From positions 47,042 through 111,041 of the forward strand of contig JABJHR010000001.1 in assembly GCA_018661705.1 (NCBI GenBank): a DNA stretch of 64,000 nucleotides, given 5' to 3'. Under the pieces are notes generated by a model. The model saw nothing but the letters and a program-made list of their open reading frames with translations. It ran no database searches and was not told where the DNA came from. Source of the stretch: Candidatus Woesearchaeota archaeon. Its GTDB lineage: Archaea; Nanobdellota; Nanobdellia; Woesearchaeales; DSVV01. The translations under genes and the position numbers were made by a program. Of this stretch, positions 1,564 to 62,355 are shown piece after piece (within the stretch, counting starts at the first letter, position 1; each line of letters starts with the position of its first letter).

Positions 1564-1578
1564 TATTTAAATGTTTCG
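1564..1578 (-). promoter_or_regulatory. archaeal BRE+TATA promoter (CGAAACATTTAAATA)
   Basis: The same CGAAACATTTAWA motif recurs at 23420 (+), 45570-45584 (-) and 62049-62066 (-). Confidence 0.65.
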
Positions 1579-10302: not shown

Positions 10303-10625
10303 TGTAGGGGGATGATTGACTATCGGTGTTTAATTATACTGAGGAAAGTCTGCCCATCAATGCTCTTCGGAGTTGAAAGTGCCACTCAATGAGATCCTTA
10401 ACAGGATGGCAACCACTCAGAAACGATACCACCTTGGAAATGGGATGATATGGCGAAGTTTCTTGCGAAAGAAATGAGTTCCCATTGACGTCTTTCAAGG
10501 AAAGGATGAAACGGTGAGCCCTGGCTGATGCAAGTACAGAATGTACGCTAAGTAGAATGTCAATGCACCTGTTCGTTGTTTAATCCAGCGAAGGTGAACA
10601 GAAGGCAGCTTACATTCCCTCTACA
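10303..10625 (+). ncRNA. rnpB: RNase P RNA
   Basis: GAGGAAAGTC (CR I), CAGAAAC, GATGAAACGG, GCAAG and AACAGAAGGCAGCTTAC (CR V); P1 TGTAGGGGGATG/CATTCCCTCTACA; TATA TTTATAAAA at 10273; T-tract downstream. Confidence 0.93.
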
Positions 10626-23501: not shown

Positions 23502-23696
23502 ATGGTTAAAAGAAAAAAAGTTGTGAAAAAGAAAAAGGTAGTAAGAAAGAAAAAGAAAGTAGTAAAGAAGAAAAAAGTAGTTAAAAAGAAAAAGCCAGCA
23601 AAGAAAAAGAAAGTAGTGAAGAAAAAGAAGAAAGTAGTAAAGAAGAAAAAAGTAGCTAAAAAGAAAAAGCCTGCAAAGAGAAAAAAGAAAAGATAA
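23502..23696 (+). CDS. 64-aa extremely Lys-rich repeat protein (histone H1/protamine-like)
   Basis: KKKKKVV and KKKKPA repeats with varied synonymous codons; SD GAGGTGA, own promoter, and a hairpin plus T-tract downstream. Confidence 0.8.
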   Translation: MVKRKKVVKKKKVVRKKKKVVKKKKVVKKKKPAKKKKVVKKKKKVVKKKKVAKKKKPAKRKKKR

Positions 23697-59536: not shown

Positions 59537-61675
59537 ATGAAGAAAAAACTACGGACTATAGGAACAATTTTGTTTATTACAATTCTGATTTTGTTATTAA
59601 CTATTCCAATGTCTTTTGCAGTTAAAGAAGTAAAAGGGCACATGAAATTATTAGCAGTGTCAGAAGGTAAAAATGCAAAAGGAAGTTTAGCTGATCTATA
59701 TTTAGAGATAAGACCAGGTAAGGGTAATGTTTATATTGATACTTTTCCATTGACTAAAATGGATACTCAGCTTAGTACAAGATTTGCAAAAGAAATTGCA
59801 TGTAAATTTCTAGAAACAGATTGTAAAAAGTATGATTTCTTTTATACAATTAATGCTGGGAGTTCTATTATTGGTGGTCCTAGTGCGGGGGCGGCTTTAG
59901 CAATGCTAACTGTTGCTTTATTGGATCCAGAAGTTAAAGAATATGATGAAACTGTTTCTATCACCGGAACAATTAATACTGGTGGAATTATTGGAAGTGT
60001 TGGTGGGGTTAAAGAAAAAATAGATGCAGCTGCTCAAAACGGAATTACTAAAGTATTAGTTCCTTTAGGATCAAATATTAAACATCAAGAAGAAAATATT
60101 ACTTTAACAGATGAAGAAATAGAAAAAATTGTTGAAGAATCAAATGTTACAGTAATTAATGAAGACATAATTGTGGAAATTTTAAATAAAACACAAAGTA
60201 TTATGGGTAATGCATCTTCTTCGTCATCTATTAATCAGACAAACTCTACAAATCAATCAAATTCATCAGAGTTTAGTATTGAAAATTATGGAAAGGAAAA
60301 AAATATTCAAGTAATTGAGGTTGTTACATTAGAGCAAGCTTTGAAAGAGTTTACTGGGAAAGATTATGGTGAAAAAAAAGAGGATATATTAATTGATAAC
60401 TTTTATACAAACACTATGAAAAAGATTTCTGATGATATTTGTGGGAGAACTATTGAGTTAAAATCAAAATTAGACAAAGATGTTGCAAATTTGGATCAAA
60501 ACACTGGTAATTTTAATCATGAAGTTGGTGGTTATGAATCTGAATCTTTATTTAAAGATCTTGTTCATGAGTCACTCTACAATCAAACATTAGATTTAAT
60601 TAATAATTCTGAACAAGCAGTTGAAAAAATTGAATATTATGCAGCTGCATCTTATTGTTTTGGTGCAAATATTAATTTAGATTATTTAATTCTTTTGAGT
60701 GCAAACTTTACAAAGAATCATAAAATAAAGAAAATGAATGAAATTGTAGAAGCAATCAATAATTCAAATGATATTTTAGATGAAACAAATTTAACATCAA
60801 TAACTGATTTACAAACATATCTTATTGTAAAAGAAAGATTAATTGAGGCTTATGATACATGGGAAGCAACAAATGATGAATTAGTTAAGAATAATACTGA
60901 TATTGAATATGGTATTGCTTATACTACTGAAAGACTTTATAGTGCTTATGCTTGGAGTCATTTTTTTAATCAATCTTCTACTACTCATGTGCTTGATGAG
61001 AAATTATTAACGCAATCTTGTCAAATAATCTTGAGTGAAGCACAAGCAAGATTAGATTATTTTGGGATTATTTTTCCTTATCCTCTTGGATTGTTAGAAA
61101 AAACAAAAAAAGAACTTAATAGGGCTTATCAGCATCTTGATAATAATCAATCAAAGATGTGTATAATGCATGCTGTGATGGCAAAAGCGGAGATTGATGC
61201 TGTACTTTCTACTTCAAATATCATGAAAGATGAAGAACTTAAACATTTGTTAGATACTAAACTTGAATTAGCAAAACAAGTTATTCTTAAACAACAATCA
61301 AAAGGTTTATTCCCCATTTTAGGTTATAGTTATTATGAATATGCGACGTCACTTGGTCAAGAAGATACTATTTCAGGGCTAATTTATTCTCAATATGCTC
61401 TTGAATTTAGTAATCTAGATCTTTATATTCAAATTAAGGAAGAAAAAACTTATTTTGAAAAAGTTTGGGCAGTTACAAAGCAATATGTCTATTTTAATCA
61501 GGATTTGTTCTTTGGATTTTTAATTGGGTTAGGTAGTGGTGTTGGTTTAACTATTGTGATTTATTTCATATTTAGATCTGGTAGGGGTGAACCCAAACAA
61601 AATTCCAAGAAAGTATCTAAGAAATCTTCTAATTTAGTGAAGAAATCATCTAAAAAAGCACGTAAAAATAGATAA
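59537..61675 (+). CDS. archaeal secreted Lon-like S16 serine protease (no ATPase)
   Basis: IGGPSAG and ITGTI...G.IG.VGGVKEK Ser-Lys dyad; signal peptide and C-terminal TM. Confidence 0.9.
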   Translation: MKKKLRTIGTILFITILILLLTIPMSFAVKEVKGHMKLLAVSEGKNAKGSLADLYLEIRPGKGNVYIDTFPLTKMDTQLSTRFAKEIACKFLETDCKKYDFFYTINAGSSIIGGPSAGAALAMLTVALLDPEVKEYDETVSITGTINTGGIIGSVGGVKEKIDAAAQNGITKVLVPLGSNIKHQEENITLTDEEIEKIVEESNVTVINEDIIVEILNKTQSIMGNASSSSSINQTNSTNQSNSSEFSIENYGKEKNIQVIEVVTLEQALKEFTGKDYGEKKEDILIDNFYTNTMKKISDDICGRTIELKSKLDKDVANLDQNTGNFNHEVGGYESESLFKDLVHESLYNQTLDLINNSEQAVEKIEYYAAASYCFGANINLDYLILLSANFTKNHKIKKMNEIVEAINNSNDILDETNLTSITDLQTYLIVKERLIEAYDTWEATNDELVKNNTDIEYGIAYTTERLYSAYAWSHFFNQSSTTHVLDEKLLTQSCQIILSEAQARLDYFGIIFPYPLGLLEKTKKELNRAYQHLDNNQSKMCIMHAVMAKAEIDAVLSTSNIMKDEELKHLLDTKLELAKQVILKQQSKGLFPILGYSYYEYATSLGQEDTISGLIYSQYALEFSNLDLYIQIKEEKTYFEKVWAVTKQYVYFNQDLFFGFLIGLGSGVGLTIVIYFIFRSGRGEPKQNSKKVSKKSSNLVKKSSKKARKNR

Positions 61676-61781: not shown

Positions 61782-62030
61782 AAAAACCCTGGCAAACCTC
61801 CGAAGAAGTTTGCTAGGGAAAGAGGTGTTAAGAGACTATAAAACCCACACAAACACCCCGAAGGACGTTTGCGCGGGAAAAAGAGGTGATTATGAAATTC
61901 TAACGACTAAAGCGTTAATTTATTATAAAATAAGGCCTCTTTGCTTTTTTATGGGTAAAAGCAGGTTATTTATTCTGCATTTGCAGTTAAAATCCCTCAA
62001 AACCCCCCTTTTCAGGGTTTGTTGTTTCTA
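61782..62030 (-). ncRNA. candidate sRNA with two anti-SD + UUCG-hairpin modules (ends approximate)
   Basis: Orphan promoter at 62049-62066; minus-strand hairpins 61877-61844 and 61818-61787 with cUUCGg loops, G-U pairs and U-tails, each preceded by CACCUCUUU. Confidence 0.5.
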
Positions 62031-62048
62031 CTATTCAGTAGGTATACC

Positions 62049-62066
62049 TTATATATAAATGTTTCG
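62049..62066 (-). promoter_or_regulatory. BRE+TATA promoter with no long ORF downstream
   Basis: CGAAACATTTATATATAA on the minus strand. Confidence 0.65.
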
Positions 62067-62355
62067 TTTTTGTAAGCACTGGTGAGTAGTATTAGTGTTT
62101 GCAGAACAGGAAATAACCCCTTATCCACATGAAAGCACATGCTTTCATGGGATCCTAAAATTTAGTCAATCACAAATGCATACCAGATCTGCATGTGAAC
62201 CTTTATGACCAAATTTTATGATTTCCCGCACAAACATGAAATTAAAAAAGACAAGTTAAAGTGGCTTTTGGGGCTTAATAAAGCTTATGGAACCCTATAC
62301 TAGAAGTTAGTTTTTGCTGAAACTTTATAAATGGCCTTGCTTAATTCTTTGTAAT

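Follow-up and report, generated by a model that had tools for sequence, protein, structure and literature searches.

What is transcribed from the leftward promoter that lies between a divergent unnamed gene and the convergent gene of a Lon-C protease-like protein? The question arises in the window, by which we mean the whole stretch of 64,000 nucleotides that was analysed (G000:C9:47042-111041), taken from an archaeal genome of 1.65 Mb and 30% GC. A sequence-only reading had placed two minus-strand modules behind this promoter. Both are present as written, and the BRE and TATA box point at them (Table 1); the start site was inferred from the 22-26 nt that separate the TATA box from the ATG of leaderless genes. 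The promoter pattern of the RNA has six matches in the window, compared with 0.94 expected by chance. The RNA occupies a single locus in the genome, which contains only four TTCG hairpins with at least 11 pairs, and the strongest two of these are the hairpins of modules 1 and 2. As judged from sequence, the locus is a promoter-led small RNA gene of an uncatalogued family that is carried by most of a DPANN class and by some viruses. No contig from three RNA runs of the same study covers the stretch, which counts neither for nor against expression.

Table 1. Features of the RNA locus and its surroundings (positions in the window).
Feature	Position	Strand	Remarks
Upstream palindrome ACTACT-N4-AGT(G/A)(C/G)T	62075..62090	-	Directly before BRE; motif profile in homologous promoters
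Core promoter: BRE CGAAA (62062-62066) and TATA box TTTATATA (62052-62059)	62052..62066	-	
Second palindrome CTACT-N4-AGTAG	62028..62041	-	Spans the predicted start site (~62030); median 11.3 bits in homologues
Variable 5' leader	61891..62030	-	G-rich SD-like run GGGGGG at 62003-62008
Module 1 seed AUCACCUCUUUUU	61878..61890	-	Ordinary type; complement of AAAAAGAGGUGAU
Module 1 hairpin CCC...cUUCGg...GGG (61844-61877) and U4 tail	61840..61877	-	
Module 2 seed UCUUAACACCUCUUU	61819..61833	-	Variant type: A replaces U before CACCUC
Module 2 hairpin CCC...cUUCGg...GGG (61787-61818) and U5 tail	61782..61818	-	Probable 3' end region
Lon-C (S16) protease-like gene	59537..61675	+	Membrane-anchored, convergent; neighbour outside the RNA
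Micro-ORF ATG AAA TTC TAA	61892..61903	+	Opposite strand; rejected as function

Folding favours the strand that the promoter faces, as had been claimed: the RNA region has a folding z score of -5.3 when read on the minus strand, compared with -2.9 for the plus strand, and the CACCUC strand is favoured by the hairpin in 152 of 182 modules of the family. Read on the plus strand, the same DNA could instead supply leaders for translated micro-ORFs, with GAGGTGAT acting as a Shine-Dalgarno (SD) sequence ahead of an ATG, a reading that had been named in advance as one that would overturn the small RNA. Here ATG AAA TTC TAA does follow an SD-like sequence, and start-codon triplets are enriched in the family (among 253 distinct pre-seed sequences, 61 have CAU, CAC or CAA at a 3-nt spacer, compared with a peak at 5 nt in real genes). 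However, an ATG triplet is present in 34 of these 253 sequences, most homologues have no start codon, and no common peptide emerges; the UUCG or GCAA loops and the G-U pairs speak for the minus strand, as does the direction of the promoter. The micro-ORF reading fails because the ATG is not conserved, and we give it almost no credence. A BRE/TATA promoter faces the module in 119 loci with no conserved ORF, which is the combination of an own promoter and no coding role that is looked for in a trans-acting sRNA.

Across the family the module has the consensus AU-CACCUC-U5-CC(C)[stem]GG(G)-UUU(U), in which hardly any change is seen in the seed, the U5 run or the closing C-G pairs, and the loop is mostly UUCG or GCAA. 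The core CACCUCUUUUUCC is exact in 239 of 286 modules, most of which were gathered by a pattern that itself demands it; modules found by the covariance model described below keep it too. In the stem 83.4% of cells are paired, two-sided changes number 196 (67 when shuffled) and the covariation is 0.53, compared with 0.07-0.20 for slid controls. The hairpin is better than all 30 interior shuffles in 169 of 182 modules, and CACCUC is unpaired (p>0.8) in 155 of 182 modules folded in isolation. Three of the four seed substitutions seen retain wobble pairing, although transitions are common anyway. The description of the hairpins as U-tailed holds at this locus, with U4 and U5, but not throughout the family: the tails are short, mostly 3-4 U in homologues (a count that can be one short), and some homologues have no U tail at all. 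A 3' trailer, AUAAUCA, is weakly enriched (26-31 compared with 8-10 of 155).

Most genomes carry one module, and two in tandem occur in a minority. In Woesearchaeales a G-rich motif is found in 87 of 119 leaders, compared with 36 after shuffling. The variable leader is absent in other orders of the class, where the TATA box lies 22-26 nt from the seed, so that the RNA would begin at the seed there. In the full-length transcript predicted for the present genome the leader covers the module 2 seed; among the 119 loci, coverage of the seed by the leader is greater than with shuffled leaders in 53 and smaller in 47.

The family is wide. A BLAST search with the region matched the hairpin module in many relatives, and the pattern CACCTCTTT-N(0-2)-CCC-N(24-46)-GGGTTT occurs in 261 of 401 genomes of the order, compared with one for the reversed control; this tally includes 15 genomes marked unpublished, two of which (G295 and G336) enter the pooled profiles and none the S-layer tests. 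A covariance-model search in DPANN had been suggested as a check on the RNA, and it bore the proposal out. The model, built from 67 modules, matches at E<=1e-4 in 43 of 80 pattern-negative genomes (60 further pattern-negative genomes were left out of this targeted search). In a phylum draw, 139 of 151 genomes have a match at E<=1e-3, and this count includes 29 of the 34 genomes that belong to other orders of the class. The draw contained no class besides this one, and kin genomes are not independent. Ten model-negative genomes were inspected at the Lon locus: in four the seed is still there, followed by a divergent stem that lacks a U tail, and six have nothing. Among the matches listed, the record titles of the homologues read Woesearchaeota, Nanoarchaeota or Nanoarchaeia, together with many 'uncultured Methanosarcinales', which we take to be automatic mislabels. 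Three pattern matches with bacterial titles (L080, L124 and L136) were set aside as chance, having no promoter and a score that was below 20 bits or missing. Presence of the RNA shows no clean split by SD usage or by presence of TrmB among the genomes compared.

The claim that the RNA is undescribed also stands. In Rfam 15 no match reaches the gathering threshold and the seven sub-threshold matches are chance. The literature searched, for the most part without subscription papers or supplements, contained no description of this RNA family, nor one of any regulatory RNA family for Woesearchaeota/Pacearchaeota-type archaea.

Lon is the commonest neighbour of the RNA gene, convergent in 80 of 137 loci and sometimes overlapping the module by its last codons. 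Since a terminator scan flags both hairpins, the module might be a terminator or cis-antisense element for the mRNA of the convergent Lon-like protease. Such a role is very improbable in our view: relative to Lon, the predicted hairpin and U-run fall on the other strand, the module and its promoter occur together in RIO1/DnaG, scpA/smc, TrmB and viral contexts as well, and the invariant 13-nt upstream seed is not something that a terminator needs. Intrinsic terminators in general are a poor match as well, the module lying behind its own promoter and taking a gene-tail position only in the TrmB copies, and so are repeats of the MITE/REP type, given the one to three pattern matches per genome and the conserved neighbours.

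Several neighbourhood features were recorded alongside. In other orders the RNA gene is often divergent to scpA or smc (condensin) genes (loci L298, L303, L306, L307, L311, L313, L314, L316 and L317; scpA was Pfam-checked at one locus). Window positions 62118-62230 hold a truncated copy of a dispersed palindromic repeat, CCACATGAAAGCAC...TGCTTTCATGGGATCC, of which longer copies with internal stems are found elsewhere in the genome (C3:95343, C16:18428 and C12:30602). Elsewhere in the window, 10304-10624 is the archaeal RNase P RNA, and 19653-19745 matches a tRNA over 93 nt, with a possible intron or long arm.

The palindrome ACTACT-N4-AGTAGT is found twice at the RNA promoter, before the BRE and again over the start site. 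The upstream copy, whose motif was seeded by hand, has a median of 13.3 bits in 111 homologous promoters, compared with -4.5 in 260 promoters of the same genome. It reaches at least 11.5 bits at 14 of those 260, one of them belonging to a TrmB-family gene for which the closest solved relative is TrmBL2 (E 6e-23) and which falls below the NCBIfam cut-off. According to the published account (PMC4158304), TrmB proteins bind TACT-Nx-AGTA and activate from upstream of the promoter but repress from downstream; the half-sites of the palindrome are TACT/AGTA, as in these motifs. The upstream palindrome is likely to be an activator site of a TrmB-family regulator and the second is possibly a repressor site; a TrmBL2-like protein would bind them. 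In seven genomes an extra module lies behind a TrmB-family gene, at a distance of 5-28 nt in six (G066, G256, G380, G408, G448 and G261) and directly behind it in G425.

Two highly conserved TrmBL2-like paralogues are encoded in the present genome (C16:211399-212220 and C19:40906-41700) and occur in most RNA-bearing genomes; the five genomes of other orders that lack the RNA each encode just one, more distant, copy. Ahead of the BRE, the ACTACT-N4-AGTAGT site recurs at window 1564-1578 and at 13 other promoters of the genome, marking a regulon that consists mostly of orphan genes and includes an M16 peptidase, an HD-domain protein and the TrmBL2-like gene.

The seed resembles the 3' tail of 16S rRNA, which is GGAUCACCUCCUUU in five genomes; AUCACCUC of the RNA is identical to the tail. 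The two differ in that the RNA has U instead of C at seed position 9, has its hairpin 3' of the motif and rarely (11%) has the G that the tail carries at -3. Because U stands for the last C of the tail, the RNA can pair with either A or G. A replacement of a lost 16S tail was considered and rejected, GGAUCACCUCCU being retained in five genomes (a sixth, L379, was left out). Pairing of the seed with rRNA extends to 9 nt at most.

The identity with the tail, and the near-invariance of the seed, U5 run and closing pairs, would also be expected of a decoy, which would imitate the 3' tail of the 16S rRNA so as to titrate a protein or nuclease that binds the tail and would not pair with mRNA, as protein-binding sites are often near-invariant. 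We regard a decoy as quite unlikely. All five tails have C where the RNA has U, the G at -3 is mostly missing, the hairpin lies 3' rather than 5' of the motif and is thus not placed as an h45-like hairpin, and the retention of wobble pairing by three of four seed substitutions points the same way, though transitions are common anyway. A decoy would also leave unexplained the variant modules matched to the S-layer mRNA described below.

At <=-12 kcal/mol, 169 of 1422 start regions are predicted to pair with the module 1 seed, compared with 6 mid-gene regions and 13 for shuffled seeds. This seed is the complement of the commonest strong site of the genome, AGAGGTG being present in 31 genes and GGAGGTG in 6. 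Among 1425 called genes its longest matches measure 16 nt (one match), 14 nt (two) and 12 nt (two). The matches that the sequence-only reading had singled out, 14 nt to gene 49677 for module 1 and 12 nt to gene 58353 for module 2, are real but are among several top matches, and these genes lose their standing as special targets to an S-layer mRNA encoded outside the window, for which the support is better. These figures, with the invariance of the seed in the class, could also describe a general silencer that shuts off all SD-led translation in dormancy with no particular target. However, the seed persists unchanged in RNA-bearing genomes in which GAGGTG-ATG sites are at background (sites and control 14/15 in G052, 67/69 in G069, 8/9 in G422 and 13/12 in G425); therefore the conserved targets must be few. 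Variant modules tuned to one mRNA and viral late genes that are often SD-led also speak against such a silencer, and we consider indiscriminate silencing, as first proposed, to be unlikely.

The S-layer gene (G000:C16:238775-241552, PF05124) is where the two modules part. Module 2 departs from the consensus in the A before CACCUC and in a shorter U-run; the S-layer mRNA ranks first of 1421 genes for module 2 and 91st for module 1. The module 2 seed has a 12-nt Watson-Crick match to the S-layer start region GAGGUGUUAAGA, and for its net binding to the S-layer leader a value of -20 kcal/mol is predicted, compared with -11 kcal/mol for module 1. This start region contains GAGGUG in 84 of 86 genomes and GAGGUGU in 82, even where SDs are otherwise scarce (of an 88-genome set G255 and G467 were dropped in parsing, and G036 and G046 have no usable S-layer orthologue). 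The U after GAGGUG is a mismatch with the ordinary seed and a pair with the A of the variant. The leader itself can form a class-wide hairpin, AAACAC-(N0-4)-GGAG-GUGUUU (G000:C16:241552-241590 and 86 homologues, L487 and L494-L646), that buries half of the SD; ACAC occurs in 66 of the 86 leaders, and in 75 of the 86 GUG(UU) takes part in the pairing. This hairpin is itself a conserved cis element.

The bases 5' of the variant seed follow the S-layer mRNA from genome to genome. In 8 of 12 variant modules they match exactly the first five spacer bases of the S-layer mRNA of the same genome: UCUUAA variants go with a UUAAG spacer in four of five cases (the present genome and four relatives, one relative being mismatched) and UCUAAA variants with UUUAG in four of four. 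For the latter the spacer had been predicted blind, correctly in three of three genomes, the fourth (G063) coming from a later search; of two looser cases tested alongside, one matched partially and one failed. The variants without a full match make four pairs (G002 and G131), three (G222) or one (G053), and the related G476 module pairs with the S-layer leader only via bulges. Extensions of at least five pairs number 8 for cognate combinations, compared with 1.2 expected and a maximum of 6 in 2000 genome shuffles. The cognate-minus-noncognate energy is -0.92, compared with -0.09+/-0.16 for pre-seeds shuffled as a composition control, and the match persists when one genome per family is sampled (median p 0.0035). 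Under the same control the ordinary modules show no covariation with the S-layer mRNA (-0.37 compared with -0.14+/-0.20; 5 of 40 shuffles as low). We note that UUUAG is the commonest S-layer spacer regardless (17 of 85), that UUAAG also occurs in two family members without a detected variant module (G006 and G021), and that the matching genomes probably reflect only about two independent events. Complementarity to a ribosome-binding site that co-varies between genomes is found, in these comparisons, for the variant modules with the S-layer mRNA but not for the ordinary modules, and on present evidence the S-layer mRNA is the best-supported candidate target of the RNA.

For the ordinary modules no single mRNA recurs with a perfect seed site across Woesearchaeales. 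Three candidates for a universal target were tried and rejected: an HPF/S30AE-like gene (G000:C9:45987), of which 6 of 30 orthologues pair at <=-12; the gene at G000:C14:178375, with 7 of 30; and the KVAKVG basic protein, which has strong SDs but AGAGGTG in only 3 of 48 start assignments, some of them internal starts. TrmB 5' leaders are modestly enriched (8 of 30 at <=-12, compared with a background of 4.6% from one genome). In 28 genomes of other orders, 7 of 14 non-self perfect 12-nt sites precede K/R-rich mini-proteins of protamine- or H1-like type. When such genes were found by their start codons, 10 of 13 paired at <=-13, compared with 1.7% of 350 control ORFs at <=-12; five of the ten are common to the perfect-site set, and the pairing may merely reflect strong SDs on abundant proteins. 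The ordinary modules would fit strong-SD messages, with those of protamine-like mini-proteins as candidates.

In the course of this search we noted an unannotated 64-aa KKKKVV-repeat mini-protein behind a consensus promoter in the window (23502-23696; G000:C9:70543) and an unannotated 67-aa KVAKVG-domain protein with a basic tail (G000:C14:20535), found in 46 of 65 genomes; both lysine-rich mini-proteins are likely to be nucleoid proteins. The HPF/S30AE-like gene (G000:C9:45987-46277, L210) encodes a stand-alone 96-aa protein present in 41 of 55 genomes, and lies near S30AE/HPF-like ribosome hibernation domains in the atlas (13% of cluster members, which is a lead only). At G000:C14:21270, on the minus strand, a promoter-proximal sequence without an ORF, GGGAAAAAGAGGGGGAU, is a near-perfect complement of the seed and CCC (-21.7 kcal/mol); it is possibly a sponge RNA, or chance.

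Pattern scans of IMG/VR gave 12 and 16 matches, and 11 viral loci reach at least 35 bits. Most viral modules are found between or near the terminase and portal genes of tailed viruses, and a TATA-like box usually precedes them; the viral hosts are inferred from the promoters and the motif. In four distinct viruses (L214, L217, L218-220 and L223) only 6-8 nt separate GGGUUU from the portal ATG, which has no SD; this suggests a cis role for these copies. The whole family might then be a cis translation or processing element of a longer transcript that, for example, recruits ribosomes ahead of SD-less starts, and the short U tails and the weakly enriched AUAAUCA trailer would agree with this. In cells, however, the gene that comes next mostly runs towards the module (it is Lon in 80 of 137 loci), so that there is nothing downstream to translate, and other viral copies are 100-200 nt from the next gene; as a general account we find the cis reading decidedly unlikely. 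One viral module (L188:1355-1411) is of the variant type, with A before CACCUC, and its pairing with S-layer leaders is stronger than that of the other viral copies (median -15.8 compared with -11 to -13).

A stand-alone modular sRNA with an anti-SD seed, as the sequence-only reading had it, is borne out in silico by class-wide conservation, stem covariation, the invariant seed and co-variation with the S-layer mRNA. In our view the locus probably encodes a regulated trans-acting anti-SD sRNA, the targets of which would be a few strongly SD-led mRNAs of bulk proteins, with module 2 tuned to the S-layer. A TrmBL2-like regulator on the two palindromes would switch the RNA on or off, and the hairpin and U-runs would stabilize it and may load Lsm, the gene for which is present in the genome. 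CACCUC would pair with GAGGUG and the U-run with any upstream purines, which is broader than the 16S tail, in which a C stands in place of the U. The bases 5' of the module 2 seed would provide a toehold on the S-layer SD-to-AUG spacer, and pairing there would open the small hairpin that hides the S-layer SD; because the leader covers this seed in the predicted full-length fold, processing or refolding would be needed. Exclusion of the 30S subunit would then lower S-layer synthesis, and that of other bulk proteins with protamine-like mini-proteins as candidates, at a physiological switch. Tailed viruses would use the module to divert host translation.

A bolder version can be drawn, in which a class-wide, re-targetable anti-SD RNA of Nanoarchaeia, with a fixed tail-like seed, a few swappable 5' bases that direct it to individual SD-led mRNAs and a tandem cassette, would be used by a TrmBL2-like switch to throttle S-layer and nucleoid-protein synthesis when these host-dependent archaea pass from growth to rest, and would have been captured by viruses to control host envelope synthesis. 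We offer it tentatively, as a doubtful but possible extension of the anti-SD sRNA. Archaea with genomes of 0.5-2 Mb are thought to have shed most regulation, and a near-universal sRNA in such genomes would imply a core regulatory function. The S-layer target with its compensatory changes, the TrmBL2-like candidate regulator and the viral capture make culture-free tests possible, and the 60-nt unit is directly assayable in archaeal translation extracts. The questions opened are how DPANN archaea switch envelope growth and how far they depend on SD pairing.

Known systems offer partial parallels. In Hfq-dependent bacterial sRNAs of the RybB type a 5' seed is followed by a U-rich stretch, then by a hairpin with a U tail. 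The present RNA shares with them the order of parts, the 5'-terminal seed and the occurrence of copies in the 3' region of a regulator gene, but differs in its archaeal host with Lsm, its short or missing U tail and a seed that is nearly a copy of the 16S tail. The cuckoo RNAs of Alphaproteobacteria (RSs0680/CcsR and C14) carry the motif CCUCCUCCC inside hairpin loops (PMC4615179). They resemble the present family in their modular hairpins, variable compensating stems and one invariant anti-SD-like motif. The sequence-only reading had likened the RNA to them, but membership does not hold: here AUCACCUCUUUUU is single-stranded and 5' of the stem, the loops are mostly UUCG or GCAA, and the host belongs to another domain of life. 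Cuckoo RNAs have 2-4 adjacent hairpins with variable, compensating stems; in the present family the stems vary and covary, with one module in most genomes and a tandem pair in a minority. IhtA of Chlamydia, which represses the mRNA of the histone-like HctA (PMC3469542), is a functional analogy only: in both cases the sRNA of a host-dependent microbe acts, here by prediction, at the start of the mRNA of a basic nucleoid protein in a life-cycle switch, although the protamine-like targets are candidates here and the S-layer target has no counterpart. By prediction, the mode of action would resemble that of the ribosome-binding-site-masking sRNAs of Methanosarcina. In M. mazei, sRNA41 and sRNA154 are archaeal intergenic sRNAs that mask ribosome-binding sites of trans-encoded mRNAs (PMC5867862), and the present RNA is likewise archaeal, intergenic and predicted to cover such sites. 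Unlike these multi-loop RNAs of Methanosarcina, it is built as a seed-hairpin-tail unit of 55-65 nt that is class-wide, tandem-duplicated and also viral.
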